Origin: Psammoneis japonica
Lineage: Eukaryota
Assembly (NCBI GenBank): GCA_008632985.1
Contig: QPGO01000001.1
Span: 364,600 to 428,599 of the forward strand
DNA: 64,000 bases
Direction of reading: 5' to 3'
Every line of letters starts with the position of its first letter. Position 1 is the stretch's first letter. Positions 4,565 to 64,000 of the stretch are shown piece by piece. The notes under the pieces are model-generated. The model saw only the letters and a list, made by a program, of their open reading frames with translations. It was not told the DNA's origin and made no database searches. The translations under genes and the position numbers were made by a program.

Positions 4565-7016
4565 AAGCAACGCTATTGTGTGCAAAGCAGGCGCAAACCT
4601 GTTGCTAGCAAGGCGACGACCGTTAACCGTTCAACATCAAGTTATTTCGTTGACCGTCAAGCCCGTGAGGAAAAAGAATCGATTTTACTTTCATGATTTG
4701 AATTCTATAGTAAAAGTCACCTCTCTGCAGTGTTTGGTGCGACGTATCTTTTTATTTGTAGCTCGCCATTGTGCTTCTGCTGACAGCTTCTGCAAGTTTG
4801 ACTGGAACTGCGGCATCCAGCTGTTGACCTGGGCTTCCTCGAAAATGACAAAAATCGGGAAAAGTTTACAGTCGAGCCCGTTCCCAAACAGCAAGGAGAT
4901 GATCATGCTTGTGATGCATAATTCCGTTCCACCGACAAACCGCATTGGCTGTTGCATTCCTTTCCAAGTGCTCCATGTTTCCATGATCGACAGCGATTGC
5001 TTCCTTTTCAGTGCAGTGATTGCACACAGGAACACCACACAACAGGACAGAAAGACCACTTTCCACAGCACAGCATCAATTGTCGCAAGATTGCCAAAGG
5101 CTCTGCCCACTGGAATGATCGGATGTGTGCCAGAGGTTCAGGAATCTGACGAAGTGGGGGGGGGGGGGGGGACTTTTTTGAGTGGCAAACAGAAACAAGC
5201 GCTGCTTGGTGGGCTCCCTTGTCTTGGGTGGCTCCAAAGTTCTTCTCCAAATTCAACAGTTTTGTGCAAACCTGAGAATTCAACCTCAAGAGCTCAGTGA
5301 CGACCTTTTGCAAATGACATTTTCTGGAAAATGACAAGAAGAAGATGCCCTTTGCGAACTCCAGCTCACTTGACCAAGATGATGCAGTTGGAGCAATTGT
5401 GCCAGGGCCGACTCTGCAGCGGAGTGGCGGAACAGCTCTGTCAGCAGAGCTTTCTGTTGCCAGAGATGAAAGCGCTTGTGGGGTCAAGGGTGTGACAGAG
5501 ATCTGCCCGAAGCACAATGTCTCAGCTTTCACACCCACATGTGAATTTCAGCAATTTTTGCTGTGCCTTGTGGCCAACCCATTTTTTAACTTTGAAGGGC
5601 TGTGGCAGTGGTCACAGCTCAGTCCAAAGCACATGACTCAAGACAACTTTGTTGGTTGGGGCCATGATGCCCCCCACCAAGTCTGCTGCCACATCTGCCA
5701 CAGCAGGCAATGCCAAGCCACACTCTTTCCAGCAGTGGGTGCAAGGCCAAAGGCAAGCTTCTGTTCTTGTTTGTGAGGCTTTGTGACATCCTCTGCAAAG
5801 TGAGAAAGCCCAGCTTGGCCAAGGTGTGCAAGACAAGAAAACAGCTTTTTGATCTGGGGCAGCTTTTGTGCATGTGAAAAGGTGGAGAAGTGTGGCAGGC
5901 ACACAACTTCATGGAGCTCCCTTCTGCCACCAGCGGAGTCTCGCGTGGCGGGAACATCAGAGTGCACAATGTCGCAATTTCTGCACACATGACAAAAACA
6001 TGTTGCTGTGTCATAAAATCCACTTGTCTGCACATGACGGTTTTTGTCATTTAGTTGATCATCAATCTCCTGCTGTTCTTCATGTTTGAACACAGATGTT
6101 TTTTAATTTTTGTGCTCTGCCTTTTTCACAACAACTGACGATGTTTAACGACAAGCCAAACATTGCAATTGCATGCAATGAAATTTTCATCATGCAAAGT
6201 GTGCGCCAATTGTTCAATCAATGACTGTGCTCCAATTTGCCTGGTCGTCCGCATCGTCCTCTTCATTCCATGTGTCTTGTCTGCTCTCTTGCAAGAATTT
6301 CAAATGTGCCGCTGCCGCGTTGGATGTTTCCTTGTCACTGTTCCAAAAAAGCCACACTGCATTTCTTGCATTTGGGTGAACATCATCGAGAGGAAGAGGT
6401 CCCTCAAAACACTGAATTGCATCGCTGCTCCCCTCTTGACGTCATGTCATCGGCTTCTTTTTGTCTTTCTTCATTTTGCCCGTCCTGTTTTTCTCTTCCT
6501 TCCTCGTTGTGGTGCCGCCTGTTTTCACCGTCTCCGGCGTCTTTCCATCCGAATCCTTCTTTTTCATTGACCCCACTGCCATTGCCTTCATCTCTTGTTG
6601 TTGTTGTTTTTTTTTTCTGTTGTGTCACTTTGTTTTGGATCCATGTTTCTGACTTCTCTCTGTGCTGTCTCCATTTCCGAATGTTTCTTTGTGATTGTTC
6701 GCACGTGCCACTTGAAGGCACCCACGTGTTTTTCACGTGCCTCAACGCACATGTAGAAATCCATGTTGTTTTCCAGTGCATGCACCCTTTCTCCTGATGC
6801 TGTTCCGCACAACATTTTCTTCCATCAATTCTGCACTCCGCATTGCCCTTTCCGGCATGATCTCACGTGGGTTTCCCTGGGAGAAGTCACATGTGCGTCT
6901 GGCAGGTTTTTGTGTTTAAAACTCCAAATCGCACCAGGCGCGCACGTAGCTTCTCCCACACACCACTCAGGCACATTTCTGCAGAAACCAGATTTTTTGG
7001 TGTTGGAACAGCAACC

Positions 7017-8756
7017 ATGGCGCCGCGTGACCCATCGGTCACCTCTCTGTTGCAAGACAACAATGATTCCTGCCTCAAGGAGGCCGCATTTGAATCTCTC
7101 TTTGCCAACAGTTTTGGAGTGATCAACAGCAACGAGTGGAGCCATGTCAAAGCGACAATCGAGACGGTGAAATCCAAGGTTCAGTTTTGCCACGATTCCA
7201 CTTGTGATCCCTCTCTGAATTGGATCGCGCTTGCCTGTGTGTGGCAAAAGTTGAAGGGCAGACCTCATTTTTTTGTAGAACCAATGGCTGTGAACCGCAT
7301 TGTTGCAAAGGAACTTGGGTGCAAGAGCTTGCTGCACTTTCTTTCCGCAAAAGGATGGAGTTGTTCCAGTCAAGGCGCCAAACATCCTCATGCGTTGGAG
7401 CATCGCCGTGCTCCCAAAGCAGAGGACATGGAAGTCATTGGCGACAAGGCAAAATCAACAGACATTGCAACCAACATGATGGCAAAGATTTCCATGTTGT
7501 GCAAGCTTCTCCATGATCCCGGATTGTGCGACCCAAAGGGAGAGCCGCTTGTCAAGCACATTGAGCTGAGAAGTTTTGAAGGGAAGGTTTTGAGTTGCGC
7601 GCAATGCCTTCACATTGGTTTTTTGATTCTTCATGACAAGATTCTGCCGCACACACCTGAAAGGAATGGTGACCACGATTGTTGGCTGCACTCCCTGTTC
7701 GGCGAATGTGACGAGACATCAACTTGCATCAACTTTTTGGAGAATTTCCTGGCTCTTGGTCACTGTGAGACGACCAAAGACAAATGCCCTGTGTCCTTCC
7801 CTGAATTCGTAAAGTCATTGTTCTGCCAACACAAACACTCTTGGGAAAAGCCTGTGCGACTGGCAATGCTCGATGTCGAGCGAGAACAAATGTGTGCGAC
7901 ACATGTCGATGAGACTCTTTTAAGATGTGTGAAAATTGATCGTGTGGTTTCTGCCGCTGACGATTCCAGCAAAAGCAAGGCTGCAAGGGATCGTTTTGAG
8001 GCTGTGTGGAAAGCCAGGCTTCGTGACTTTGCCGCTCAGTGCAAGAAGAAAGAAATCGGCAATGCAATTCCATCCGTTGCGAAAAATGCTCAGAAACGAA
8101 AAAATCCAAATGGCACGAATCCATCACATTGTTTGATTGATTGTTTGTGCTCCTCTTCTCATCTCCAATTCTTCCATTCTTCTTGCCACCCACTCTTTAG
8201 CCGTCTCCCTTTGCTCCTCAAGCCCCAGTCTCAAAAACCCCAAAGATGGTGAACCTTCTGATGTTTCTCAGAATGAATCGCTGACTCTCCAAGATGTGCC
8301 GACTCTCAAGGAACAATTTGAACATTCCCAAACAAAGTGGCCACAGCAGCACTTAAAGATGGAATTTTGGTTTTGTTTTGTTTTGAAGTGGGACCTGCTC
8401 ACAAGCCTGGTGCTGTCTTTGGCAGGGACAAATGGGAGAAGCTTCCAAAGGATGTGCAGGCAATGACAGCCTCAATCTTGGACGCCACGCAACTCTGCGA
8501 GGACAAAATTAATCTTGTTGCATTGAAAGAAATGCGTTCCTTCCATGACCCGTGCCATGACAGTCTTTTCGCAGCTGAGCTCCGTAAGATGGTTGGAGCC
8601 AAGCACATTAGAAGGGAAGGCGTGGAAATTCAAGTTAAGTGCATCTCGTCGTCCGGCAAAAAATCCGTCAATTCGAAAACCGAGCTGCACATTGACAAAG
8701 AGGATTGTGACATGGATGGGCACACCAAGACTGGTGCTCTTTGCTTGTCACCATGA
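7017..8756 (+). pseudogene. Decayed spliced gene of unknown function
   Basis: Protein-like ORF from ATG 7017. Intron-like segment 8113-8200 (GCACGA...CTCTTTAG) joins NPN-A-VSLCSS in phase. No Tyr residues. Confidence 0.45.
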
Positions 8757-10074
8757 GACGCTGTTGGTCACTCTTGGTTGTTGAAGGTTGTCACTGCATC
8801 CAAAGGCAATGCTGGAAACTGTGTCAGTTCGGCACATGGGTGTGCCGAGTTCCGATCGCGTGTGCATGGTCATTTCGCAAAACTTGATCTGTCATGTGCT
8901 GCAGAAATGATGAGATGCCGTGGCCCTTGTCATCCTCCGTCGGGCAAGCCAACCCACAGAAACATCAAAGATTTTTCCTTGACCCTCACTCTGTGTGGGT
9001 GGAAGAGGAAATTGGCAAGCCAAATCTTCCGTCCGACACAGTTGAGCACCCCATTGTTGTCATGCCAAGGAAACGTCTTCCGTTTGCCATCGTGAAGGAC
9101 TTTAATTTCTCGTGCGGTTGTTTGGCAATCATCGACAACCTCGATGAGGTTGGTGCACACGATTGCTTTCGTCATGCCGTTGTGGCTGGGTGTCAAACCG
9201 GATTCTCCCATTTTTGCTGCTTGTTGTGCAACACAGATGCTGTGAAGCGTCCTTTCGTGGCTGGTGATTGTGTCCTTCATTGCTTCAGAGAAGCTGCAAG
9301 GCTGTTCGGCAGCATTGCGGGGGATCGCAATGACCGACACATGCAGAGCCCGGGACTCGATTTCGAGGAGGTTCATGTGGCAGAGTGCGGGACAAAACTT
9401 GACGGTTTGATGGATTTGCTTGTTGGCGGACTGGTTGTTGTCATCGACTGGATCAATGACAATGTTGGCAAGCCAACGTTTGACCACAAGGTGATCGAGG
9501 ATGTGTTTCAAACCGTGGTCCAAACATGGGATCACACAGGTGCTGATTGTGGAGAGCTCAGATGCATGAACTCCACGCAGACGTTGATGCTGTGTGGCAT
9601 GGGGATCCATCCTCACCCTGACCTTCGTGGTCTTGTCCATCGGTGGCCAAGTTGGGAGCGGCGAAGCAAATGGAGGAAATGAAGGTCCCGGTGGAGGAGC
9701 GCGATTTACTCTTGGAACGGACAGAGGGTGATTTTGATTTGGAAGAGACTGTGGAAAGAATGACCCAGAGTCTTTGCTGTGTGACCTGAGTGCAGCTCGT
9801 GAAAAGATGGGAATCTGCGATGTCTTTTGTTGCGGACAGCATCTGTTGCTCTTGTTCTCTGATGGGCAATCAATGATCAAGCGGTTTGGAAGGTGTGAAT
9901 GGGAGCCAGTCCCACTCCTGTCGATTGATGAAGTTCGAGTCAAACTGGAGCGGCAAAGAGAGGTTGCTTTTTCATGGCAATCACATTTGTTTTTTGTCTG
10001 ATCATGCTGACATTGTCACATTGATTTCTCGTTCTAACAGGAAGAAGGCCGCCGGTGATTTGTTGTCATTCGCA

Positions 10075-11012
10075 ATGAACAAAAGTGGTGATTGCGAGGA
10101 GTCAATTGACGAGAAAACAAGCAAACTTCCAACTGCTTGCGTGGGTGAAGAGGACAAAAGCAAAGAGCCTGTTGATGATGAGCACAACCAAGTTGCACAT
10201 TGCTCCGAGGGTGAAGAGGACCATGGCGACTTGGGAGATTGTTTCGCAAGTGACGAAACTGACGGGGAAACACACAATGTGCTGTGGTTGGGGATGACCC
10301 GTCCGCTCAATGCAAGGCAACTATCTTCATCCGACCAACACAGGCGAGACGAGGCCCACGCAATGGCATTTGAGGAATGCAACAAAACAATCACAAACAT
10401 CGTTCCAACAGTTTCTCTCCAAGACGGACATCCTGATCTGCACTTGAATTGCAATGTGAAAGCAAGAGATTTCGTCAAGAGAGTCAAGCAGCAGTTTGAG
10501 AAACTTGTTGATTTCGACAACCATGGGTTCGACCAAATCATGTTGGACTGCTGCTGGATGCCAGATGGAGAGTGGTGCGACAGTCGTTTTGGGATGACTC
10601 AATTTTTCCAAATCCAATTGATCTTTGGGCCTTGCTCTCCAAAAACGAAGAAGGGGGGGACACAGTGATTCCCTTTGCTCTTGCAACCTTCTTCCAGGTT
10701 GTCAAACAATGGAAGAAATTGTCGGCTGTGTTCGACATGTGCACAATGGACAAGGATGCTGCAAAGAGCCGTGCGAGTGTGTTCTTTGCAAGCAACCTTA
10801 CAACCCAAGAACAACAAGAACGGTGGTTGGGAAAGCCTTCCGATCAGGAAGAAGCTCATCTTGGAGTTTCCAAAGAAGACATCAGAACGAAAGCAACGGA
10901 AGGTGCTCGCACCGCACTGCTTCACGTGCACCGCAATGACTTTGCCAATTCTGAAAGGATCAAATTCATCATGTTTGCAAAAAAGAGTCAGGTGATCACT
11001 GTGAGTGAATGA
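10075..11012 (+). pseudogene. Decayed gene of unknown function, frameshifted near 10610
   Basis: Overlapping protein-like ORFs 9886..10668 and 10572..11012, with an acidic N-terminus and no Tyr. Confidence 0.4.
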
Positions 11013-11736
11013 CAGATTGACACGCGTGTCCTGTTTTAGAAACAAATCTGACCAACACTTCCTTCTGTCCTGTGCAGCCCAAACAAACAGGGCCTTTTCT
11101 TGCGCTTCTGCCACTCCTGGACATTGTTCACAAACCAAAACATTGTCCCCAATTGCTTTGACAGGGACAACCCACAACTTGGGTGAGTGCTGAGTCTTCT
11201 CAGGCATTGAAAGCCAGTTGTTTCATTTGTGATCAAGCTGCCAGCGACCAACCAAGTCTGCATGCTGATGCCGTTGCCTCACAGTTCTCTGGTCAATGTT
11301 GACAGGGCCTTCATCAAGACTCATGCTCGTCGTCCTTGTCTTGTGGATGAGAAGGGAAAAGAAGAACAACGCGCAAAAAATGGCGGGAAAATGGCAAACA
11401 TTACATTGTCTTCCAGATTTGGATGATTCTCATGGGTGTGACGTGTCTGCATTTTGATTTTTTGTCTGGCATTTACAGTGAATGTTGTTCTTTTTTATTT
11501 GCTGTCAAAATGAAGGACATTGTCTCCGTTGGAACGCAATGACAGCCATGTCAAAAAGCAAGTTGGGCTGTTCATTGTTGCGACACAAATGCATTTTCAA
11601 ATTTCAATGTCACTGACAACAATTTGTGCAATGTCACAGAGAAAAACAGAGTGGCTGGCTGTCTCAACATGACCCAGACGATGGTTGCACTGTCGAACTG
11701 CAACACTGCTCTCATTGTTGCTGTGTGAAGATCAAG

Positions 11737-13056
11737 ATGTCGTCTCCAGCACCACCGGCAAAGAAGAGAAAGAAAAATGAGACCATTGAGCCAACGAGCC
11801 CGAGACTTCAGGCAGTGTTGAAGAGAACAGGCACGCAGGCAGCGCATGGTGCATTGAAATCAGAAGCAGAGAAGGTGGCTAGAAATGATCTCTTTCCACA
11901 GGTGAAGTTTCTCAGTCCGTCAGAATTGGCAAGCAATGGGAGCGTCTCAATGTTTGTCAAGAAACAGATTGCTGGTGGCAACATGGACACTTCAAATTGG
12001 TCAGGAACTTGGGAGGAATGGGCAAAAAAGGTGGCAAAAAGGCAAATTGACAATCGCAGAAACACGGTGTGTTCGGCTGTTGGGGCGGAGGCAATGGCCC
12101 GCAAGCCAAGTGACCAATGTGTGTGACTCGAGAGTTGCACACATCTCACAAGAAGATGACGGTGATGCTTTGTCCATGTGGGTGTTGTCACTGAGGAAGA
12201 GGGAAAGGAAAAAGAAAAGAAACTCAAGGCGGCAGTCAGGAGGAAAAAGCAAAACAGGAAAAAGTCAAGCCTTGACAAGAATGAAGAGAATGACATCCCG
12301 TTTGTGCCAACATGGGATCTGTTTGGCCTGGACACTGTCACCGGCGGCAAACAAAGGAACAAGCAGGCACACAAGTGGTTCTGTGATCACATCCCACCTC
12401 AAACCAAGCAAAAGCAGGCATGGAGCCGCGCCATCAAAACTGGGAACGCACAGGTCTCACAGTTGTTTGCGGCAGGTGACGAAGCTTTGGCGCTGTCAGC
12501 TGTGGAGAATTGTTGGCAGGTGTGGGCATGCAGGAACAAGGAGGAGGCGGTGGAAGAATTGGGTGAGGAAATGGAGCCCGAAGAAACAAGGCCTGCCCCT
12601 CGGCACTCGAAGCCAAAGAAACAACGAGAGTCTTGGGGAGACGACGGAATCATTCGGTTCAACGATTTGTGCGAAGAGGTGATGAAAGACAGAGACTCCA
12701 AGGAGGGCAAGGAGTTTGAAAAGTGGCACGCAGAGATCAAGAAAAGCGAGTGCGAGAAGTCCGGAGAAGCAAAGAAGAAGAAGAAGATGGCACCGACCGG
12801 TGATGCGGAGAAGGTGAAGGCAATGAGCAGCCCAATGGTGGAGAGCAGCAGGGACGATGACAGTGACGACGATGAGCAGGAGGAAGGCACAAAAGGAAAA
12901 ACGAACAATGGAGGAGACGAATCCGATGAAGACGAGTCCAATGAAGACGAGTCCGATGATGATTGTCAGCTCAGTTTGAGAGAGTTGCAGCAAGAAAATG
13001 TGCGCACAGCTGACATGGCACTCGGTCATTGCACTGCAGACGCAACAAGGAATTGA
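11737..13056 (+). pseudogene. Decayed gene with NLS-like N-terminus and acidic tail, resembling a DNA-transposon accessory ORF
   Basis: PPAKKRKK; DEALALSAVENCW...SWGDDGIIRFNDLCEEVMKDR. Two ORFs separated by an intron-sized gap. Family assignment (Plavaka/CMC-type accessory ORF) is from recollection and unverified. Confidence 0.4.
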
Positions 13057-13612
13057 CTTGACTGATGAAATGTTTTTCTCGTTTAAAACAATGTTTGTGA
13101 AAATTAACAAACCAAGGTTTGTGTGGCAATGCAACCACGCATTGGCACACGGCAACAAGGTGGAGGCAGAAATGGCGATGTGGATGTGGTGAAAAACAGC
13201 ACACACAATTCTCAACAAGTTGTTGCAATGTTGGCACACCAAACTTGTGACCAGAGGTTGGCCTGTCATCACATGACAATGACATTTTGCAATGTTTTGA
13301 CAAATTGTCATCATGTAAATCTGCACATTTTTAACGCTTCGTGCACTCTGATGAGTGCACTCAAAGAAGCTGCCAGAGGTCAAAGATGACAATGGATCAA
13401 AAGAGATCTCTTGTGCCAGTTTGAAGGGTGAGACTCTCAAGCATTGAATGGAAATTTGAAGCGGAGACTTGGGGGCACTGCGGAGCTTTACAAATCAACA
13501 GCACGGTGTGTGGCGTGTGTGGATCTTTTGTGGGCGGGAATGCTTTTGGAATGAACTGCCGGGTGCGTGCGTGCGGTTCGTGGTCCATCCGCCACCCAAG
13601 TCATAAAAGCAT

Positions 13613-13702: not shown

Positions 13703-14644
13703 CATGGTGTTCGCCAATCCATCGCACGCGCACAACTCGTGTCAAGTGACGTTGCACCCCAACAACAATCACGAGAGAATTCAAACCCACAACGAGAAAC
13801 CGCAACACACAAACGACGACTTGTTGTTGTTGTCGTGACATCACATTACGGGACGGAAGCAAAACACAACAAAACAGTCATATTCACATAAATTGGTACG
13901 TTCATCACAACATGATTGTAAGGAACAATCCGTGTCGTATCGGCGTTGTATCAATCGTCGCGCCATGGTTGTTGTTGTTTTTGGTGGCAAAATGTTGTCG
14001 TTGACACTACTGATAATAACCCGGAAGTCATTTGCGAATTTTGGGTTTGCCGCGCGTCACGTTGTTCCGATTGTGTAGATTTCTACGTGTGTCGTAAGAA
14101 AATGAGAATTTCCAGCTGGCGCGCTGTAAACTTGGTACACATTCTACGTATTGGCGCCAAATTTTGGGTTCTCAACTCCATGCCCAAAAAGACACTCTTC
14201 TTGTCATTGGCATATCCCATCACAACTTGTTTGTTCTGTTGTTGCTGGTCATCGCCGTTGTTGATTCTCCATTGTTGATAACAACGACGCAAGAGGTGTG
14301 TGTATATGATTGTGCAAATTACAGTGTTGCGAGGAGGAGAGGACTCGTTCCGTCGGCGTTCGTTCTGTTTGTTCTGCCGCGTAATGAAATTTGTACTGTT
14401 GTTTTGGTCATGCCGTTGCTGTTGCTTGTCTGTGGAGACAAGAGATATATGTTGTGTGTATGATTGAATACAGCAGAGTAGCAGCGAACGGACTAGAAGC
14501 TCGAGAGTGTTGCGGCACCGTCAGCAGAAGTCGTATTCGTTCTGTTGTTTATGTTGAAAGGTTTTTGTTCTTTTTGTTCTTAGCTGCGTACTCACCTCGT
14601 ATTGCTTTTCCAGTCCTTATACAGAATCTCAATACAACTACACC

Positions 14645-16469
14645 ATGACTCGAAGACGGTTTACAAGACGACGACCTCCTCTGACGGACAATAAGCGTAC
14701 TCTTGCGCTGGTTGTTGCGGCCATTTTGAGCCGTCATGCCTCCCACTCGTATTCTGCCGTAGCGTTTGTACCACATTCTACGGCCCACGCTACTACTACT
14801 ACTACTACTTCCAGCAGCAGAACGTTTTTTCAAAATTCCGACATGATCAATCTCCCCTACACAACATCCTCACAACAACCACCACAACATCATGACATGC
14901 CCATTTGGCTCAGTCAACCCCAAGGTCACTTGCTCCACGAAAAGCTTCAACTACTTTCCAATAAAATGTCTCATCTCTCTCATGACGAAACCGATGCTGT
15001 GCTCAATGCCATTCAAGAAGCGTGTCGTTTGGATGAGAATCAAATGGCCGGTGCTGCAGACTTTTTATTGATTTTGGCAGAAACCATGGAAATGGGCTAC
15101 GTGGCACTCGTGGCGGCGGCGCATCATTATGGTTCGTGTGTGACGGCACGGCAATTTGGAATTTCCGTATCCGAACTACCCCTTGAAATGTTGCCCGAGA
15201 CGATTCGAACCGTGGTGGAAAATGCAGCCACTCTCAAAAGAATGGAAATGGTGGCACAACAAGTCACGGCGGTACATGCAAGCAGTGCGACCAATCTCAA
15301 GAAATTGTTACTCAGCGAAACACAAGATTGGAGAGCATTGGCGATTCGGTGTGCGGCGAGTTTGTACAGATTGCGGGGTATCGTCACGAACAATAGTGTT
15401 CCAGGACAATTGAGTCCCGAAATTGTTCGTGCTTGTCGTGAAGCCTTGCATATCTATGCTCCATTGGCGTCGCGCATGGGCATGCACCGTCTCAAGAGTG
15501 AATTGGAAACAACGGCTTTTTCAATATTGTACAAACGACAATACGAACGAGTCACGCTGCTTGCCAAGCAATTGCAGAAACGACGGGATTATAACATTGC
15601 CGGAATGTCCTCGATTGAATCGAGTATGCGAAAAGTGTTGATTTCGACCAAGAATGAAATGACCGATATGTTGCAACGCGATGCGGTATTCCATGAGGCA
15701 ACCGAACATGTTCAAGTGACGGCTCGTGTCAAGGAACCCTATTCGTTGTGGCGTAAAATGCTCAAACAACACAAACATCATATTCTTCAAGTACCCGATG
15801 CCGTCGCCTTGCGTATCGTCCTCAAGGCCAAACCGCAGGGCGATGAGGATATCGAGGTGACGCGATCGCGGGAGGTGGCACTGTGTTATTATGCGCAAGA
15901 ACTGTGCATGCGCAAATGGCTTCCGGCGGATGATCCACGCGTCAAGGATTACATTGCCCATCCGAAACCCAATGGTTATCAGAGTTTGCATTACACCGCC
16001 AGCACGCAGTGGGGTGGACACTTGTATTCTCTAGAAATTCAATGCCGTTCGGAAGAAATGCATTCGGTTGCCGAATACGGATTGGCGTCGCATGACGATT
16101 ACAAGAGCAAGGCAGCGTTGGTACAGTACGAACGCGACGCGTATTTGGAATCGGTCCAAGAATGGCAATTGCAGCACGATGCTCCGTTGCTGGTGCAAGA
16201 GAATAACAATCCCTACTTGTCGGCTCTGTCACAAGCCAAACTCGATTTGGAACGACAGTCGGTCATTGTCTTTTTGTTGGGAAAAGTCTTGCAATTGCCG
16301 TCGGGGTCGTGTGTTTTGGATGCACTGAGGGAAGGAGAGCGATTGTATGGACTACAAGTGGATTGGAAGTGCGCCGCCGGTCAATGGGAGTTTGTCGTCC
16401 ATCACGTCGCAATTGCAAAATGGAGATGTACTGACCATGTTGCAACCACAAGTCACTGTGACAATGTAA
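14645..16469 (+). CDS. RSH: Plastid-targeted RelA/SpoT homologue (ppGpp synthetase, degenerate HD region, TGS-like tail; frameshift near 16378)
   Basis: IYAPLASRMGM, ARVKEPYSLWRKM, DAVALRIV, KDYIAHPKPNGYQSLH, EIQCRSEEMH..AEYGLASH. Leader ends SAVAFVP. The tail VNGSLSSITSQLQNGDVL is in the shifted frame with TAA at 16467-16469. Confidence 0.9.
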
Positions 16470-16599
16470 ATAATAACAACAATAGATTGTGTTGTACCCG
16501 AGTTGTTTACACACATTGTGGATACTACTCTATTGTGTTGTTCCTCTGTTATTTTATAAGAGTCTGTGCCTTTTTATTCTCTTGACAGTTGTGCTATGC

Positions 16600-34959: not shown

Positions 34960-40100
<5,141 letters not shown>

Positions 40101-50596: not shown

Positions 50597-50598
50597 TA

Positions 50599-51799: not shown

Positions 51800-52355
51800 C
51801 AGTGGATTCACACACGGAAAAACACACCATGACCAACCATCAGCCATCAGATGGAGTGAAGTAACCTCTTGAGTGTTGGTGTGGCATGTCACAGTGGCGC
51901 ACAAGATGGTGTGCAATGCTGCTGCAAAGAATGATGAATGGAAAAACAAAGAAAATGCGAAAACACGTTCCCCCCTAAAAAGACCGCACACCGACACGGG
52001 ACAATTGTGAGAAGCCGAGGGCTCCGCACTCGAGAGACTTGAGAATGATTCGTTTGCAACGTTTTCTTGCTGGAAACAAAGATTGTTTGGCAAGAGAACA
52101 GCACAGACTGAATCTTCATCCAGTCGAGCGAATGCTCAGTCGATGGAGGAACTGCGCGCGGAATCGAAAATGCTTGTTGCGAGTGTTGGCACACCGCAGC
52201 ATCAAAAGAGCCCATGTGTTGCGAGGACAGGAGCTCATCCCATTGGCTCTTTATGCAGATTTTACAGAACATTGTTCACAAGCTGCAAATGTTCTTTAGC
52301 CTGGGCCTTGTTGGCTTTGCATGGCTGCTGACAGATTGTCTCGATTTGTCAGGAA

Positions 52356-53548: not shown

Positions 53549-54904
53549 GTCAGGAAATGTGCTGCAGATTCTACTGAGACATTCAGTTTAACAGAAGTTG
53601 CCATTGATCTCTTCTTGTCTCCTGTGTCCTCTTTTCCACTGTGAGCCAGCCCATCCAGCCATCTACAACGGGGTTCCTGGTCTTTTCAGACAACTCAAGA
53701 TGCTCAGGAAGACTCTTTGCTTAGACTTGCAACCAATCCCTTCATCTCCAGCTGGTTGATGGCGGCTTCCTCATCTTGGCAATCGCAATCAATGCAATGT
53801 CATGCGGCGCCTTTCTTGCTTTGCATGTTGCAATTTGATGCTCACATCCAGAGAGCGGAGGTGGCCAATCTGGATCAGGAACAACACCAAACTTGCCGAA
53901 CTCCCACGAGGAACATGCAGCAGACGCTGACGTGCCGTTTTATGTGACCAAAGCAACAAAGCCAACCGACTCATCCGCTGGCACTCGATTGATTGTTTGG
54001 CCAGTTTTTCAAGTTTGGAAGAAAGTGACTTTTGAAGATTCACAACAGTGCACTCTGAAACATGTTTGCCAAGTGCACCATGTCCGTCAAAAACTCAAAG
54101 CAGGCGATTGTCAGGCACGTCACTGACCACCCACCTCCGAAGCAGGGTCGTCATCATCTTCCGTGTGCCCACGAGTGCGAAAGGGTGATGCAACAAAAGC
54201 TTGATGTCCTGATTAATTTGAGATGATGTCCTTCCACCGTTTCACCCAATCAGCACTGATGTTCCATAAAATGAACATTTTTCTTCAAATCCTGGGCTCT
54301 GTCATGGGCAAAGGCTGCGTTGACACTTGGCGCAGTTGTTGCTCCCACAACATGAACGAAATCTGCTTTGGACACATTGTGACGCGGCCGACAAATCAAG
54401 AAATTTGAGCAAACAACCACAAACAACCACCAGGTCTTTTCTTGAGCACCACAAAGTTGCAAGTGACGGACATCAGCCGACCCTGGGGCAACCTGAACGC
54501 ATCAAACACATGAGTTGCCTCGAGCTCGATGCAGCGCGGCATTTGAGAAGCTTTTTCTTTTTTGTTGTCGTGAACAATCCCATTTGATTTCTTGAGGCTC
54601 ACAAACACCCAACCAACGCGGTTGAGGAAGTCGGAAGGCCCGAGGGTTGCTGCAACGCCGGTGTTCATCTTTGTCATGCCATGGTGTTTTTCGCCCGTTG
54701 CTCTCCACGCGGTCCACTCGGAAATTCGCTGGCTTGGATTGAAACATTTCAATTTTTCAGAGAGGTCCCCTAATTAAAAAAATCGACGGACAAGTGATCT
54801 GAAAAATGTAGCGATGCGCATTCTCGCTCGCTCACTCGCTCGCTCGCTCCTCGCTCGGCGACCGGCGACTTCCGCAGATACTGTTTTTCTTTACATGTAC
54901 CACC

Positions 54905-57357
54905 ATGATGTCGCCGCCGCCGCCGCCGCCGCCGCCATCGCCATCGCCATCGCCGTCGCCACCGACGCCGCTACTAGGCGCGGACTCGTCGACTGATGAC
55001 GAGGGAGAGAAGAAACAGATCGCCCGCATTCTCGACGATCAAGCATCATTGGATAATACAGTTACTCGTACGAAGCGCAGCCGTGATCTCGTGGAGTTTG
55101 CACAGAACCTGGATATGCGCAATCTACAATCCATGGTTTGCCCCAACAAATACTGTTGCCAAGACCCAAAGTGCACGGAAAGAATTTGTGGTCTTTTCCG
55201 AGAGATTGAGCAAACGAGTAGTGAAATTGAGCAAACGAGTAGTGAAATTGAGACCTCTCGCCATGAAGTCATAATTGCGCAGCGAGAACTTGATGCCTGT
55301 GGAGCACGTGTGGAACAGGAAAAGCAACACTCCACACGGGAAAAAACGACTTTGCTCGAACAGTTATTGCAAGGGAAAAAAGAATCATTGCGACGGACAA
55401 AAGAATTATTGCGATGGAAAAAAGAATCATTGCGACGGATAAAAGAATTATTGATTGAAAAGGGGAAGGTTATTGCGGGTAAGCACGAAAATGTAAGGAG
55501 TACTTTATCCTGCATGGGCCGCGGTGGTAACGAAAGCAGGTTCACTTTCAATGGCACCAGGACAGAAGAAGGAGAAAAACTGATATCGAATCAGCAGCTC
55601 GATTCAAGAATCGGCAGTCAACAAGACTCTCCAGATACCGTTTCTACTGTCCTGGGTAATGCCGCATCTTTAATTCCTTTGGAAACCCTTAGCGAAGATC
55701 TGAGAGAGTTTCTCCGCTTCCTGCAAGGTCTCTTTCAGCGTTGCGAGGATTCGGACGCTCATTACACCACAGGAAAAGAGCAATATGTGAAGGATATTGC
55801 AATTACTGTCAAGGCAATTCTAGATTGGAAAAAAGGTTTCAAGCTGGAGGAGTCTGTCACTTACTACAAGCCGCACTGGCAAGGTCATGAAACAAGAGGA
55901 GCTCACCCGATCCTCTTTGCCATCATGTTCAAGATCACGAACATGCTGGAGGTGAATCAGAATGCGCTTCACGAGCAGCATATACCCAAGCTTGATAGTC
56001 ATGCTCCAGGACGCTTCGTGGATGCAGTGATCCACCCTGTTTCGGAGATGATCTTGAGGACGATTCCCGGTCTGTTCGGCAAGCCTGTGGAAATCAAGCC
56101 TTGTGCTCGCGCAAACTCGGGCTTGAAGAAGATGCAGGAACAAGGTGAAAACCAAGTGATTGGCATCTTACGAAAATCTTGAAGGATAGGTACTTTGACT
56201 TCGGTGCAGGTCTAGGTAGAGATGGCAAGGTTCGTGGTGTCACTATGACCATGGTGTCTGTAGATGCTATGGAACTCAGCCTTTCAGGCGTTGGTACAGA
56301 AGGCGTTGTGGTTAAATGTGCCAAATCGGGCCACTTGCCATTGTTTGACGAGAGCACGACTAAAGCATTACTAAATGGCATGCCAAATCTGGACGAGGTA
56401 GTGAATGACCTTTTTCATGGATGTAAAGCCCACGATGGCTTTCGGATACTGGTGGATGAGATCAAGACACCGGATAACCATACATACAATGACGTCAAAG
56501 CTACAGTCACGAACGAGAAGCTAGAACTTGGAAAATATCTGGGTTCCGGGGCATTCTCCTCTGTTTACAGCGTGCGTGGATGCAGAGAGGACAAAGAAAT
56601 GTTTATCAAGTTCCCAAAGACCAATCGTGCCGTCGGGGCATTGGAGAAAGAGCTCAAGATGATCAGCAGGCTCAATCATCAAGGAATACCTAAAGCTGAG
56701 AAGCTCGTTAACATGACTCTTGAAGCACGTTGTGAAAAGAAGGATGTCAAGGTCTTGATACTCAAGGGTATAATTGGGATGACAGCCTTGGCAGCCTTGA
56801 ACGTCAATAAGTCTCTGATAAGTGCGATTGTATCACAAGTCCTGGATGTGGTGCAATATGCTCAACGGGAAGGCATCGCGCATATGGATTTGAGACCTTC
56901 AAATATCATTGTGGCAGGGCTTGAAGGCCGTGTGATTGTTCAGGTGATCGATTGGGGATGCTCCGTCGACATTGGGACAGAGTTGAAGAATTTTCGTGGC
57001 TGTCCGCCCTTTGCTCACGATGAACTTCTGAAGAAGGAAACCTACCACGCTCGGAGCAAGAGTTTCAAGAAGGCTTTGCAGGTTGGTGCTCAGCACGACA
57101 ATGCATCGTTAGCGTTCACGGTTGCAGCTCTCGTGGCAGAGGCTTCAGTACCTTGGTCGGGATTTAGCGAGATTGCAGTTGACCAAAGCGTGCTTGACGC
57201 GAGGCGAACCAAGGCTATTCAGTTGCTACAGAGTGAATCTTTCCTTCAGGAAGAGGCTCGAAGCAAACTAGTTGGCTTTCTCGGAGTGAAGCAAGAGGCC
57301 AAGGACGGAGTACAGGTCAACAAAGGAACAAAGCGAAAGATCGAGACTTCAGCGTGA
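54905..57357 (+). CDS. Coiled-coil / REase-like / protein kinase fusion (frameshift near 56164)
   Basis: Kinase motifs LGSGAFSSVY, FIK, HMDLRPSNII, IDWG. Upstream FVD..VEIKP..NQ. One added base gives QVIGHLTKILKDRYF and joins the two ORFs. Confidence 0.75.
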
Positions 57358-58189
57358 TACGGTATAGTGAGAGTCCAAACAATTCTCCAAAGCGTCATAT
57401 GTTCTAGTGAGCTGCCCAGTCTTCTTTTCCGTTGGGACCAAACTTTTGCACAGTGGTAGACCTGTACCTATGATGTACCATGCATTTTAGTAAAGATGTA
57501 TCAAATCATAGAATACTGTAGTTTATTCCTCTCACTCTGACGAAAATCATTACATTAAGTCCGCGCATGCAGGCTAAAAAAGACGGTCTGCTCTCCTGTC
57601 CTACAGTAAAACTTTTTTCGAATGAAAATAAAACTTGAAAAGATTACCCTACAGTCGGGTAAACAAGTGTAATAAGAGTGAAAAATACATTGTAACAGCG
57701 CACTACAGGTTAGGAAGTGAGCATCTCGGAACTCCCTCCGAGACGCCTCATGTAACGTTCCATCGCTAATCCCACAGTTCATCAACCTAACAACAGGCAA
57801 ATGAGAGGGCAACGAGGACACACTTTGATTGCTCATTTATGATGCAGGTGCACACTTAAGGTCCCACACACAATGAATCACTTGCCTGTTGCTGATGCTG
57901 CAAATGGAGTTGAGCCAGCTCCTCAGGTCAACCTGCCTCATGGTCTTGAGTGGGGGGCAATCAGAACATGACCTGAGGTCAGAAGCCATTGGTGGAATGG
58001 TGCTCCAGGTTTGGACACTTGAACATGGGTCATCATGTCCAAGGCCTCCTTTGTGTCAAGCCATTTCTCTGACCAAAGCTCAAGCATGTGGCAAAATGCA
58101 ACCACCCAAGGTGCAAAGCATGCAAGTGTGCCAAAGGATGTTGATGTTCTGTCCTTTGCACTGCCAAACACAACATGGTCCCAGAGCAT

Positions 58190-58430
58190 GGTGGAGATCT
58201 GAAAGCTGATCACTTGCATCTTGGTCGGGCCATGAGCATGGACCACATCAAGTCCATCCCATCTCCCAGGTTGCACCTGCAACTCATGTTGCAAGGCCTC
58301 ATCCAAACAATTCAAGGGAAGCTGTGTCTTTGTTGATCATGCTTCTGGAAATGTCCACGTTGAACAACAACTTGGTTTTTCTGCTGTGAAGATGGTGCAA
58401 GCAAAGCAAGTGTTTGAAAAGCATGCAATG
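58190..58430 (+). mobile_element. Copia (CoDi-like) integrase fragment
   Basis: KQFKGSCVFVDHASGNVHVEQQLGFSAVKMVQAKQVFEKHA resembles the Copia integrase core. Confidence 0.7.
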
Positions 58431-58479
58431 CCCTTCTTTTGAACGTGTGTTCTCATGAGAAGGCGGCAAAATGTCCTTG

Positions 58480-58736
58480 TGTCTTGTGCCAGTCTCACCA
58501 GTTGATGATGCACATGCACTCACATTCATGGATGAGGTCATTGTTTTTGTTCCAACCATTCTTGACAGCTTGATCTTTGAGGGTCTGGAGGAGCTCAAAA
58601 ACAGTTTCTCCTGTGTGCATGAGAATCCATTTTCCAAGATTGTCTCCACTGCTTTGTTGCAAATGGACCGGTGTGCCTTTTGCACAAAGTTAAGAGTGCT
58701 TTTGATGACCTGAGCAGGTGTCAGAGAAAATGCCAT
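58480..58736 (-). mobile_element. Copia (CoDi-like) gag N-terminal fragment
   Basis: FSLTPAQVIKSTLNFVQKAHRSICNKA resembles the start of diatom Copia gag (from recollection). Confidence 0.45.
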
Positions 58737-60224
58737 GATGGCTGGTCATCTTTTCTGTCTCACTTGACATCGTTGATTTTGCAGCAATGACCACAATGAA
58801 TCATTGCAGCAAGGCCTTGAATGTGTCAGAGAAGAGGTTTGGCCTTAGCAGCAAGGGTGGAACAGAAGAAGAAGAAGAAGAAGTGCAAGAGGACTTGGAA
58901 CAAGTCCAACATGAACAAGCACATGATCGAATGTTGCTTTTGCCGCCACCAATGCTTCTCATGCAGATGAAGAGAATCACGAAGATGCTGATGAAATCAA
59001 CAAGGGATGGTCTGTCGTGGTTGTGTGCTGGCAAGCAGCGACAACACTGGCGTTGGCATTGTGTCTGACATGGGGACAGCACAATTGGATCCCATGCCTC
59101 CTCCACCACCTGCGCAGGACCATGTCACACTTCTTGCAGATGCCCATGCAGCCGAAAGGAATGACAGCATGGACGATGTGTGAGAACAAATGGCTGCACT
59201 CGAGCAAGAGAGCATGCATCTTCGAAATGAAGTTCCCCTGGCACAATCTGAGCTTGCTCAAGCAAGTGCAAGAAATGAGGGCTGCCGTTGCAAATGCCTT
59301 TTTGTTCTTGGGGTTGCAGCAGGGAGTCACCTCAACATTTGAACAATGCGTTGACGGCCCGTAAATGGATTGTTAAATGCATTGCATGATGCACAATTTA
59401 AATTTATGCCCAAATTTAAATTTGTGAGTTTTTGCACAAATTTGATTTCACGCACAATTCCACATGAACATGCCAGTGTAGAATCACACAAAATTTGCAT
59501 GGTGCACAAAGCTCAATGAATCTTGAAATCAACATTCCCTCAAATGGCATTGAGTTCCTTGTTGACAAAGGAATCTTGGCTCATGCACAAATTTGAGTGC
59601 TTCGAGAAACAAGAATCATGTGATTGGGAGAAGCAAATTTACGCACAAATTTGGATGCACAAATTTGCTGAAATTTGTGTGCAAATTTGGAAATTCAGGA
59701 AACGCCAATGTGTTGAAAATCACAAATGATTTCAACGGATTTCCGTTGAAAGTTAAAACATTGAAAGTTAATCTGTTGAAAGTCATGACTTTCAAAGGAT
59801 TTCTGTTGAAAGTTAAAAATGTCAAAGCTGGTGCAACCTGGAAATCTGTTGAAAGATGTGGAAACACTGACGTCATCCACACGTCCCAAAGCGGCAAATG
59901 CTGACTGCTTCAGACACCCACCACAATCAGGTGTCAAAGAGGGCAACAGTTTCAGCAAATTTTTTGTTTTTTAGCTTTGAGTCACGAGTGCAAAAAAAGT
60001 GCTCAGCACCGCTCATTTTTCATCAATGACATCGACGAACATGTTGTTGTTTGTTTTTTACACTGCAGCACCCACCTCCTCCACCTCCTCAACACCATCC
60101 AAATCGTCTTCACTCTCATCATTGTGTGTGTCAGTGTCCATGACAGCACAATTTACAGCAAGTGGCACAGACGAATCATCTGCATTTTCCAGAATTGATG
60201 TGCTCAACAAGATGTTGTGCAACC

Positions 60225-62600
60225 TCATTTTTGCAGCAAGTGTCTTCCACTTGTCCGGGTCCTGTGGCTTTGGATTGAGAAAGCTGGCTCCTTGATGAAG
60301 TTTCTGGGTGTCCTTGACTCGGGTTCCTTGAGGTGCGTTTTCACGGTCGGTGAACACAATGTTCCTGAATTCATTTCGCAACTGCTCAAACTGTTCCTTC
60401 TTTTCAGTTGCACAACCAAAAAATGTCTGGATGCCATGAATGTTTTCTTTCCAAGGACATCAGGATGCTTGGATGCTTCAAGGGTGTTCCAGTTGGTCGT
60501 GGGTTTGTAGTTCCCCATCTCTTGATGCATTGCCTTGAAGCAATCAAATGCTGTGGGCAATCTCACTCCGTGAAGCTGTCCATGCATCACATGCAATGCT
60601 TCACTGCCTTCCCTGCTGCATCCCAAATGCCTTTGAAATGAAATTTCTGGGCAAACTGGTGAGTTGCTGCAGCCACGTCTACTGTGCTTGCGAATCTTGC
60701 AATTCTCAAAAAGTTTTGGTTGCACTTGCATTGGTCCATGCCACTGTTCTCATCAAATTGACTCCGTTGTGTTTGAATTGATGCTTGCAGCATTGGACGA
60801 TCTAAAGAAGGCATGCATTGTGGAAGCCTGGGTGGTTTCTCCAAAAAAGTGCCAGACATCGCATTCGTAGATTCGCCACTTCTTGTTGACTCCATCATGC
60901 TTGACTGTGATTGTCCTTGGAGAATGTAAAACAACAAACATGCACAGGATGGCTTGGGCATCCACAGAGCAATTGTCGGTCACACAGGCTCAAAGATTGC
61001 ACATCGCAGAGAAGTCAGTGAAGATCAGCAACTCTTCGCGGGTGAAGGCATGTGTGTCAATGCGTCACATGAGATTGATCAATTCTGTCTCACAATGGTG
61101 TTTCCTGCATTTCTCCAGCTGCATCAGCAGTCGCTCTACGACCGTTTTCACTGGGAGCTCTACATCCATCAGTTCTGTCTGTGTGTTCTGCTCCCCTTTT
61201 GCATTGGTCCCAGCTCTCGGTGCCAGCAGCCATTCCTTTACAGGGACTTTAACGTCGCATTTGGTGAGTGCTTTACATTTTTGCAGCTTCATCTTTTTTG
61301 ACTCCACAACTCCGACAGTTCCCATGTGTGCATTTCCAAGGGATTTGTTTTGGTGGACAGCCTCCAACCTTGGTGCAGAGCATTGGTTCCTCCTTTGACG
61401 GGCAGCATGATGCTTTGACGAGTTGTCTGTAGTTTGTTTTTAGCAATGAAGATGTCATCAGCACCAGACCCATCATCTTCATCTGCTCTCATTTGAACGT
61501 GTAAGTCGCAAGTGCAATTTTCCATTCTCTTTTCAACATGTTTGCTGATCAACGATTTGTTCAATGATTTCATGCTCTCCTCCAGTCCAATCTTTATCAA
61601 ATCAATGCAAGAATGTTCAGACGGGTCCTGCACACAAGGGCAAGCACAGCCACGGAATCGCTCTTTGCCTGTTGAGCTGTCATGGGTGTCTTGAAACGTC
61701 TGATGCACCTCCAATTTTTGGAATGCATCAAATCGGCTCTCAAGAGTCGCGTCATTCCATGCTTGAGCTGGGTGAGTGATGACTTTTCTCGTTGTTGGAT
61801 CCCCCAGTTTGTGAACCCTGCCAGCACTCTGCATGAACATGAGATCCTTCTTCTGAATGGCAAAATTCAATTGTGCAAAGATGAGCTTAATCACAAACAC
61901 AGTCACTCGTTTCTTCCTTGGTCGAATTTTGAAAACATCCTCACTCTCATCTTTCAAGCTGTGGCAAGCAGCAGTCATGACTGCATCAACCGCATTGCGC
62001 ACTTCAGTGGGAACTGCATTTGGCTCTTGTGCTTCTCTACAAAGTCATGCACATCGTCCACAATTTCTTTGTCCATCATGTCTGCATCCTGGGTGGCAGT
62101 CACACAAGCCAATTTACTTGCACACTCCATGCGAGATTTAAGCAAGCCCAGCAGTTAACTCGCCAAGGCTTTGTTCTTGTTTGCCAGCACTGTCAGCAGC
62201 TGTTCCAGCTCATTCACGGGCTTTCTCAAAGTGTTGCCGGCAATGCTGTCTGCTCTGGCGACTTGCTCATCACTCAACTTTTCCCATTCAACACGCTTCT
62301 TCCGTTGACTGTCACGAGAGTGCTGAAATTTGTAAAGGCATTTCTTCTTAATGCCTTGCGACATGGGTGAGAGCAGATCCTCATCTCCATCACCACTGGA
62401 AGCATTTCTCTTTAGCAGGATGTGCAGATGGATTGGTTTGTTGCTCTTTTCCTCCTTTGCCCTTCTTTTTCTTCTCCCTTTCTTTCCTTTTTTTCATTGC
62501 TTTGTCGAGTGCATTCTTGAGCTTTTTCTTGTCCTTCTCACTCACACTGCAATGGACTGCAGGAGAGACTGCTTCACTGAGTCGAAAAATCTGAGAAGAA
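60225..62600 (-). mobile_element. Decayed Sola2-like DDD transposase
   Basis: Cys cluster, then IFTDFSAM..., GMDQCKCNQNF..., HQFAQKFHFKGIWDAAGKAVK (compare DF...D..QYK...HGKG..D..G..VK). Stops and frameshifts present. Confidence 0.5.
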
Positions 62601-62749
62601 TTGACTTCTTCATTGCTTTTTCGGTCGAAAGAGCATGACAACAACATTGGCGCACGAGTGTTTTGATGGTGTTTTTGCTCGGGTTCATCCTCTTGCTCTT
62701 CCTTGTCTTGATTGAAGACCAGTTCCACATCTTCTTCTTCTTCATCATC

Positions 62750-64000
62750 AGCATGTTCATGCCGAGACAGTCGTCTAGAGTGCCTTGAGCATCAATGTCA
62801 AAATTCGCGTCTCCAATGTCTTGCATTGCTTTGTCAACAGCAGACTTGTCAAGGGATGCAAAGATGCCATCGTCCACATGATGAACATAAAATGATGTTG
62901 TCGCGAAAATGCAGACACTCATCAACCGCTGAATGAATGAAGCCAATTTGCAACAATCCATCACGCAAGTGCTCCTGCCATGCTCTCCCTGCCTGCTTCT
63001 GACCACATGAATTCTTTGGCAATTTCAGAACATGAGTCTTGCCATTGCCACATTTTGTTTCAATTCCAGCAGGTGACTCCACATGCACATCACATTCGAC
63101 ATCAGCGTGCGGGTGTGCCAGAACGAAGTGAACCTGTCGGGTGTGCCATTTGTTGAGCATGGACATGATCAGCAGAAGCCGGACAGCAAACCAGAAGACA
63201 ACCGAGGAGCAAGTCTGAAAGCAGTTGACCGCATGCTCTTGTTTTCCACCGTGCACGTTGAGTCTGGACTTCCACTCATGGACCATTTGTGTTTTGACAT
63301 CTCTTTTCCTTTTCACAGACCACACAGAAGGGAGAATGTCAGCATCAGCAGGTGCATCCTCTCTTGGAATAAGTGCCCAATGTCTCTTTTCAATGTGGTC
63401 ATTTGCTTCCTTGACACAAGCTTTGATGAACTCGTCTCAGTCCGGTTCACGCATGACCTGGTCAAAATGCCATTGCATCGGGGTCCGAGCTTGCAAAAAA
63501 AGAGACAGGTGAGTCCATGTGTCCTGCAACTTGTAATCATCTTCATGCATGGCGTCACAACAAGCCTCTGCCTCAGCATCATAGGATGCAACACCTTGAG
63601 CCCGTTGTGGTTGGCTCTCGCGCATCGTCCTTTTGGTCGGGCGTCATTGTCGTCGGACCTGCTGGTGCTGGGCTGACCCATGGCATGCTGTGGCTCAGGT
63701 GCAGCATCGGGATCATTGGAGGCGTGTGCAGGACCTCATCATCCGGCTGAGCATTGTCAAATGAGTCATCAGCAGTCAATGTGTCACCAGGATGCAGCAG
63801 CTGAGGCGGAATTTCAGGACCCGGTTCAGTTGGTTCCGTTGCGGCAGGAGCAGGGTCCCTCACATCATCTGACCTCAAAAAGATGTTGAGTGTCCTTCCT
63901 GACTTCAGTTGTTTGAAACCCGTTGTGCCTTGCCATTGTGAGAATGTTGAAGGATTTCCAGCAGATGGATGAACGGTCTCAAAGAAGTTGTCAAATTGTG
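62750..64000 (-). mobile_element. Copia reverse transcriptase remnant
   Basis: WSVKRKR..WKSRLNVHGGKQ..QVHFVLAHP..KNSCGQKQAGRAW..HVDDGIF..DCLG. Confidence 0.9.

Follow-up and report, generated by a model that had tools for sequence, protein, structure and literature searches.

Alternation of genes and TA-depleted blocks

The stretch of DNA analysed here, hereafter the window, comprises 64,000 nt of the Psammoneis japonica genome (assembly GCA_008632985.1, contig QPGO01000001.1, forward-strand positions 364,600 to 428,599), and all coordinates below are those of the window. Judged by its sequence it is nuclear DNA of a pennate diatom, in which genes of ordinary composition alternate with blocks of several kilobases where the dinucleotide TA (TpA) is almost absent. 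When a profile was taken in sliding 1-kb windows, the ratio of observed to expected dinucleotide frequency (o/e) for TA was 0.00-0.2 in these blocks, as against 0.45-0.8 in the genes between them. Block borders were placed by a two-state segmentation, using a hidden Markov model (HMM) on pyrimidine-purine steps, which yielded eight depleted segments with a TA o/e of 0.029-0.115, compared with 0.50-0.64 in normal DNA. A preliminary description of the window had reported that multi-kilobase blocks nearly lack TA while neighbouring genes use it normally, and this is borne out by the segmentation (0.03-0.12 against 0.50-0.64). Its count of seven blocks stands as regards their extent, except that the sixth is composed of two strongly depleted parts around a milder stretch, giving eight segments. 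The blocks are as follows:

4925-13602: block 1 (8.7 kb), TA o/e 0.055, CG o/e 0.60
16597-21352: block 2, TA o/e 0.057, CG o/e 0.41, beginning 12 bp past the RelA/SpoT stop codon
23163-25788: block 3, TA o/e 0.048, CG o/e 0.32
27868-33094: block 4, TA o/e 0.052, CG o/e 0.10, with the sugar transporter gene on one side and the EamA gene on the other
34956-40109: block 5, TA o/e 0.029, CG o/e 0.17
46343-47912 and 51048-54758: strongly depleted parts of block 6, TA o/e 0.115 and 0.107, flanking an intermediate stretch at 47925-51043 (TA o/e 0.285 in the segmentation)
57865-63999: block 7, TA o/e 0.096, CG o/e 0.42, reaching the end of the window

Taken together, the blocks contain 165 TA in 37,857 bp (4.4 per kb, o/e 0.06), whereas normal DNA contains 921 in 22,950 bp (40.1 per kb, o/e 0.57). 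For the blocks the normal density predicts approximately 1,519, and the Poisson probability of the observed number was printed as 0. The longest run free of TA extends over 1,339 bp (36581-37920), followed by runs of 1,204 bp, 1,179 bp and 1,163 bp.

Other pyrimidine-purine steps are also altered. In the pooled blocks the o/e is 1.67 for TG (1.25 in normal DNA), 1.70 for CA (1.24) and 0.42 for CG (0.97); in individual blocks CG ranges over 0.10-0.72, and TG and CA over 1.14-1.86. Taken as a whole, pyrimidine-purine steps account for a fraction of 0.207-0.250 in blocks, as against 0.235-0.271 in normal DNA, and this constant total, combined with the rise in TG and CA, is as expected from transitions among TA, CG, TG and CA. 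The triplets TAA and TAG together occur 3.2 times per 1000 trinucleotides in blocks and 18.1 times in normal DNA; their erasure leaves long open reading frames (ORFs) on both strands, for example at 8888-10015. When TG and CA are compared bin by bin (500 bp), the blocks show no greater over-dispersion of their imbalance than the genes do, and hence no claim of strand-coordinated clusters is made.

The genes were recognised through a Pfam scan of ORFs of at least 90 amino acids (aa) (104 + 108, or 212 of 213 ORFs, the RelA/SpoT ORF being scanned separately). The block edges lie tens to a few hundred bases from the ends of these genes:

224-1741: galactosyltransferase gene
14558-16585: RelA/SpoT gene
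25899-27428: sugar transporter gene
33228-34397, minus strand: EamA transporter gene
40407-41066: Rab GTPase gene
42441-43361, minus strand: phosphofructokinase gene
56149-57357: protein kinase gene

The closest named relatives of the sugar transporter are from raphid pennate diatoms, Fistulifera solaris (65%) and Amphora (62%), and the closest overall is a metagenome protein (83%).

Transposon remnants within the blocks

Pfam, applied to ORFs of at least 90 aa, and tblastn recognised transposon proteins in only three of the eight segments, and Pfam found no domain in block 1 or in blocks 2-5. The features of the blocks are:

62761-63998, minus strand: fragment of a Copia reverse transcriptase (RT; RVT_2 by Pfam, also tblastn), ending before the RNase H
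58251-58436, plus strand: second Copia remnant, from the integrase side of the polyprotein (tblastn, 16 of 93 queries)
46132-54814: 8.7-kb element with 44-bp inverted ends at 46132-46175 and 54771-54814, alike in 42 of 44 bases
48287-49591, minus strand: partly mutated 435-aa transposase ORF of Tc1/mariner type (DDE_3, Pfam E 3e-12)
47548-47952, plus strand: ORF with a WW domain inside the 8.7-kb element (Pfam E 3e-6, barely above the cut-off)
6861-8249, plus strand: 463-aa ORF of an unnamed family in block 1, related only to P0369, a metagenome protein with 58% identity

A lead to DUF2828 as the family of P0369 was weak (0.88, low recognition) and was not used. In block 2, a resemblance to an OTT_1508-like deaminase in the ORF at 18723-19295 on the plus strand (E 0.0084; 16.5 bits against a cut-off of 27; 20 residues) was taken as chance, approximately 260 ORFs having been scanned. 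The same block contains an inverted pair of 69-bp segments (19232-19300 and 20261-20329) that are 71% identical in bases and 96% identical when coded as purines and pyrimidines, so that the two arms have diverged almost only by transitions; the pair includes a site that is CA in one arm and TG in the other, and TTAA is kept in one arm. A second short inverted pair lies at 50597-50675 and 51723-51801. At the edge of block 5 there is a simple repeat (39521-39640), where ORFs give low-complexity Pfam noise.

Edges of the depletion and its relation to repetition

The drop in TA o/e from 0.50-0.64 in genes to 0.03-0.12 in blocks occurs at the ends of genes and, in the case of the 8.7-kb element, inside the inverted ends of the transposon. 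TA is present at 11.9 per kb within this element, the depletion lying inside its inverted ends with none spreading outside; the ends themselves retain six and three TA, and one of the two differences between them is TA against CA. The preliminary description placed the signal in transposon-derived DNA. The sharp edges and the normal genes agree with such confinement, while the identification as transposons is visible in three of the eight segments only.

A restriction to repeats was part of the same proposal; neither this nor a trigger by sequence homology is supported, as far as the window goes, by the two repeated sequences that can serve as controls:

43986-45700: tandem array of about nine 185-bp units with 75-95% identity, undepleted at 60 TA per kb
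22395-22730, plus strand, and also 21725-22375, plus strand: fragment of a RelA/SpoT paralogue (Pfam RelA_SpoT, E 1e-20), in a region of normal TA

The full RelA/SpoT gene is 6 kb away from this fragment, and the two have a DNA identity of 73-84% in short pieces. Within the window, blastn self-comparison, a repeat search and comparison in purine/pyrimidine coding found no copies shared between blocks. Of 176 contigs of a public run (X1, see below) that match the window, 86 are only 90-95% alike, and the elements probably have related copies elsewhere in the genome, to judge from these contigs. The region of the paralogue fragment is itself covered at 22001-22640 by a contig of another run (X2) with a word depth of 430 and 45 differences.

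Fungal repeat-induced point mutation (RIP) changes C to T, creates TpA and is triggered by sequence duplication. As had been argued from the outset, it cannot account for a signal in which TpA is removed rather than made. What is observed here resembles RIP of ascomycetes in being an irreversible hypermutation by transitions, through which transposons are disabled and a sharp-edged dinucleotide signature is left behind; it differs in that TpA is destroyed, that neither a tandem array nor a paralogue has been touched, and that no duplicates are detectable in the window.

Direction of the change

Comparison of the encoded proteins with their relatives gives the direction of change as TA to TG or CA. 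The Copia RT was aligned with 93 relatives, and the 102 columns with at least 30 aligned sequences and at least 70% agreement were considered. None of seven conserved Tyr residues is kept (three are His, three Cys and one Phe), as against 74 of 95 other residues (Fisher p 6e-5). A reversion test, in which the actual codon and its neighbours were used, showed that 15 of the 28 changed columns are undone by a single reversion of TG or CA to TA, one by the CpG rule and 12 by neither. The changes that follow the TA rule include Tyr to Cys or His, Val (GTA) to Ala (GCA), Leu (TTA) to Ser (TCA), and Met, Ile or Lys after T to Val or Glu. For the transposase, compared with 150 relatives over 96 columns of at least 60% agreement, conserved Tyr is kept at two of five positions (one Cys, two His) and other residues at 83 of 91; four of its 11 changes fit the TA rule and one the CpG rule. 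The block-1 ORF has no Tyr in the 362 positions aligned with P0369, in which 19 Tyr are matched by 12 Cys, three His, three Phe and one Ile; of the 150 mismatches, 26 agree with the TA rule and 14 with the CpG rule. Hence Tyr has become Cys or His at six of seven positions in the RT, three of five in the transposase and 15 of 19 in the block-1 ORF.

These three comparisons uphold the direction first suggested by individual motifs, and the motifs themselves are in place: HVDD (62869-62880), KNSCGQKQAG (63002-63010), LAHP (63110-63121) and DCLG (62761-62772), all on the minus strand, in the Copia fragment; CSPELNPIE (48470-48496, minus strand) in the transposase; and QCK (8037-8045, plus strand). 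The Copia relatives are not poor in TA: 79 metagenome loci have a TA o/e of 0.30-0.79 with a median of 0.57, in a scan that used Tyr-containing peptide patterns and so under-sampled hypermutated copies.

Change on both strands of the DNA

Along the coding strand of the Copia RT there are eight A>G events (TG type) and seven T>C events (CA type); in the block-1 ORF there are 20 and seven, respectively (binomial p 0.02). The expectation that either strand can be changed is thereby confirmed. T>C on the sense strand is not obtainable from an edited sense RNA, and a cut-and-paste transposon is affected as well, which together exclude RNA editing and place the process at the level of DNA.

Flanking bases and the separate decay of CpG

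The survival of TA in the blocks relative to normal DNA is strongly set by the neighbouring bases, in the order of sensitivity TAT > TAC > TAG >> TAA. Survival by context is:

ATAT: 0 (59 in normal DNA, 0 in blocks)
GTAC: 0.009
ATAC/GTAT: 0.01
ATAG/CTAT: 0.03
ATAA/TTAT: 0.08
CTAG: 0.10
CTAC/GTAG: 0.11
GTAA/TTAC: 0.15
CTAA/TTAG: 0.21
TTAA: 0.92 (44 seen, in all eight segments)

The 16 classes were fitted with a model that lets each strand lose its A independently, one flanking base setting the rate. It gave rates of 2.48 for TAT, 1.66 for TAC, 1.12 for TAG and 0.12 for TAA, and these four rates are strongly preferred to a single one (2dLL = 186, p 4e-40); the class with the poorest fit is GTAG (16 seen, 5.9 expected). 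The same order of flanks is found in the half-mutated transposase stretch and in trinucleotide counts. Composition alone is equally compatible with a deciding base on the 3' side of the A and with one lying two positions to its 5' side. Tyr codons following a pyrimidine have become Cys and His in the ratio 9:2, and those following a purine in the ratio 7:6 (p 0.065); the gain of YTGY (Y, pyrimidine; R, purine) is 15.95 per kb and that of RTGR 9.83. These figures point weakly, from the sequence, to the 3' side of the A.

CpG loss in the same blocks shows little dependence on flanking bases (survival 0.35-0.63) and trails the loss of TA: block 1 has a CG o/e of 0.60 at a TA o/e of 0.055, and block 4 of 0.10 at 0.052. 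Being slower and lacking the flank rule, it represents a separate process acting on the same DNA. That deamination of 5-methylcytosine (5mC) at CpG cannot explain the loss of TA, as had been stated beforehand, is confirmed: it accounts for the CG loss only, and for one of the 28 RT changes. Transposons of diatoms are cytosine-methylated via DNMT5a (PMC9998398, as far as the accessible part of that source extends), which accounts for the CpG part of the signal. Decay of methylated transposons is thus similar in acting in the same blocks (CG o/e 0.10-0.72) and in yielding TG and CA, and dissimilar in that it cannot remove TA, is slower here and has little flank dependence.

Accuracy of the sequence

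The public run X1 dates from 2019 and derives from the same sample as X2 and X3. Of the words sampled from a 9.9-kb stretch, X1 contains 73%; X3 yielded no matching contig. Its contigs over 35644-37551 and 37539-38881, in block 5, show no substitution in 3.2 kb, where the window has seven TA and approximately 130 would be expected. A contig over 28631-30512 in block 4 (1.9 kb) shows 15 differences, in a part of the window that has three TA and approximately 75 expected. The word depth of the X1 contigs on the blocks is 31-57. Words seen 30-57 times should not be obtainable from noisy long reads, so that the TA-free text appears to be present in accurate reads. The comparison of amplified short reads that the preliminary description proposed as a check for artefacts has in effect been run, with the TA-free sequence retained in X1. 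An artefact of the base caller seems to be excluded on these grounds; X1 may be the window's own sample, and is therefore not counted as an independent isolate.

Interpretation

The account to which these observations point, and which is considered highly likely, is that a DNA-level process targeted at silenced selfish DNA, and sparing genes, has turned TA into TG and CA nearly to saturation. The intergenic DNA would consist of dead transposon remnants, comprising a Copia element, a DNA transposon of Tc1 type that has inverted ends, and other elements that are unclassified. Within them, T:A pairs at 5'-TA-3' would be converted to C:G, leaving TG or CA according to the strand hit; the strands would be acted upon independently, at rates of TAT >= TAC > TAG >> TAA, and TTAA would be spared. 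Decay of methylated CpG would proceed in the same DNA, more slowly and separately. The elements would be permanently inactivated because catalytic Tyr and other residues are destroyed, and a role in genome defence can be suggested. The depletion, its direction, its occurrence on both strands and at the level of DNA, its confinement and the flank rule are shown by the data, whereas the enzyme, the targeting signal and the defence role go beyond them. The reaction might be the conversion of adenine to hypoxanthine by a TadA/ADAT2-like zinc deaminase brought to silent chromatin; this is the most likely chemistry, although held at somewhat less than even confidence.

A system of the same kind was described in 2026, in a preprint on Bigelowiella natans (Mettrop et al., bioRxiv 10.64898/2026.01.13.699255), the accessible text of which is drawn on here. 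It describes how integrated DNA of giant viruses and virophages is hypermutated specifically at TpA: of 231 mutations found in two such integrated regions, 230 are A>G or T>C, each of these 230 at TpA (10.64898/2026.01.13.699255). According to that text the rate is about 6e-7, approximately 1000-fold over background and in some lines only, and domains of DDE endonucleases and RTs are enriched in coding sequences that are poor in TpA (10.64898/2026.01.13.699255). Its authors favour adenine deamination and propose an ADAT2 homologue (10.64898/2026.01.13.699255). The preliminary description knew of no such system, and this is superseded by the preprint, in whose available text the same spectrum from TpA to TpG/CpA arises de novo. 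The finding is therefore not categorically new. A literature search, covering TpA-directed full text and hypermutation of diatom retrotransposons, returned this one description and none for diatoms, which the accessible text of the preprint does not mention (10.64898/2026.01.13.699255).

In both organisms A>G or T>C at TpA gives TpG or CpA on both strands, in selfish DNA beside normally mutating genes. The B. natans changes are de novo mutations in mutation-accumulation lines, far from saturation (TpA makes up 3.3% of viral-region dinucleotides), whereas the diatom window shows a saturated end state (o/e 0.03-0.12) on transposons. A flank rule is seen in the diatom blocks, and no neighbour context is given in the main text of the preprint as available. 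What is new here is the first diatom case, the saturation on transposons, the element-sharp edges, the flank rule, and the independence from both CpG decay and tandem repetition.

Known adenosine deaminases offer partial parallels. In tRNA, A34 follows a conserved U33, and TAT is not known as an anticodon context of ADAT. TadA/ADAT2, acting on tRNA A34, and ADAR, acting on double-stranded RNA, both convert A to inosine, which is read as G. The accessible part of one review lists the substrate of TadA/ADAT2 as 'RNA, DNA?' with the motif 5'-ACG, and the motif of ADAR as 5'-UAG (PMC10661471). The window departs from both, as the best context here is TAT and the ADAR optimum, TAG, comes only third, which argues against ADAR.

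Several observations weigh against the account of a targeted process at TA. The outcome in sequence is identical whether the A or the T is the damaged base, and the assignment of the flank to the 3' side is weak (9:2 against 7:6). Changes outside the TA rule, attributable to ordinary divergence, make up 12 of 28 in the RT and, in the block-1 ORF, 124 of the 150 mismatches; ancestral states were taken from relatives 38-66% identical rather than from a family consensus of the same genome; and the process is read from end states. Five blocks lack a recognisable transposon protein, and at the inverted ends of the 8.7-kb element TA persists even in sensitive contexts. No platform is recorded for X1, and the accuracy of its reads is judged from word depth. 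Finally, among the 40 of 291 differences listed between X1 and the window, 14 lie in block 3, of which two are TG/TA and four involve CpG, the others including G>A outside TG; so few TG/TA differences do not support ongoing activity.

The rival explanations differ in how much of this they can accommodate. Modified bases cause systematic miscalls, and a TA modification in transposons that led a long-read caller or polisher to write G would produce a signal specific to motif and region, as is seen; such an artefact is nevertheless very improbable, given that X1 contigs with words seen 31-57 times have no substitution over 35644-38881, that independent database records carry copies with Tyr changed to Cys or His, and that the Illumina data from the B. 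natans mutation-accumulation lines, in the available text, show the same changes. Equally little credence, or slightly less, attaches to the idea that the elements avoid TA themselves or came in from a source poor in TA. Most genomes contain less TA than expected, and the genes here also have an o/e of only 0.57; against this, conserved catalytic residues have been destroyed (YVDD to HVDD), the depletion is common to unrelated superfamilies and non-coding DNA, the relatives have a median of 0.57, and TA o/e grades from 0.29 to 0.03, both inside elements and from one element to another. That an ADAR-like enzyme edited the transcripts of transposons, with reverse transcription fixing the changes, would fit the preference for U before the edited A (PMC10661471, in its accessible part), but is extremely unlikely in view of the involvement of a DNA transposon with inverted ends and not of retroelements only, the near-equal frequency of T>C and A>G (7:8) on the RT sense strand where changes of the transcribed strand only would be expected, the equal depletion of non-coding parts, and a preferred 3' base of T or C where 5'-UAG is given for ADAR1/2 (PMC10661471, likewise).

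The most serious competitor, although still improbable, shifts the primary lesion to thymine: an oxidised or hypermodified T, such as 5-hydroxymethyluracil or 5-formyluracil or a base of the base-J kind, at 5'-(R)TA-3' would mispair with G and give T to C. As TA>CA and TA>TG are mirror images, a T preceded by a purine fits as well as an A followed by a pyrimidine, and in some protists 5-hydroxymethyluracil replaces thymine, preferentially at TpA. On the other side, nothing in the window supports such a base, no TET/JBP-type gene turned up, though none was searched for, and the authors of the B. natans preprint favour adenine deamination in its available text. A related and similarly doubtful proposal is that the loss of TA is the mutational shadow of a heritable modification of A or T at 5'-TAY-3' in silenced DNA. 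If so, diatoms and chlorarachniophytes would have in common a second, non-CpG epigenetic mark, whose spontaneous or enzymatic decay is read as G or C in the way that decay of 5mC is read as T, and the spared TTAA and transposon ends would reflect the sequence and chromatin rules of its writer. Sequence does not distinguish the decay of such a mark from a lesion on thymine.

Returning to a targeted process at TA, a mechanism common to a diatom and a chlorarachniophyte would imply a DNA-editing defence against transposons and viruses across distant algal lineages, and the enzyme could then be findable from genes that co-occur with the signature. The flank rule, with TAY preferred and TTAA spared, would serve as a fingerprint for candidate deaminases and can be checked in the published de novo mutations. 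Hypermutation also makes transposon families hard to recognise, as five of the blocks are without a domain match.

Similar signatures in other records

Replacement of Tyr was also assessed in database relatives, using pooled counts over the sites where six normal Copia relatives have Tyr. The Copia record P0121, from NCBI, keeps Tyr at 15% of these sites and has Cys at 40% and His at 24%; for P0130, from ENA, the values are 29%, 35% and 11%. In P0124, P0127, P0132, P0133, P0134 and P0139, Tyr is kept at 60-79%, with Cys at 0-5% and His at 0-4%, and two Copia relatives are intermediate, P0186 keeping 32% of Tyr and P0138 55%. Among 151 transposases, the median share of Cys and His at Tyr positions is 0.05, compared with 0.30 in the window copy and 0.40 in P0316. 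Hypermutated copies get annotated as genes because of their false long ORFs, and P0121, P0130 and P0316 have the appearance of such annotations.

At the nucleotide level, the metagenome loci L010 and L022 contain 1-kb windows with a TA o/e of 0.12, normal CpG and an order headed by TAT and TAC, which in samples this small are hints only. The environmental contigs L066 (1-9981) and L069 (1-2500), which carry Copia relatives, have a uniformly low TA of 0.2-0.3 and CpG of 0.1-0.3 without TAT coming first, and may reflect a different, organism-wide bias.

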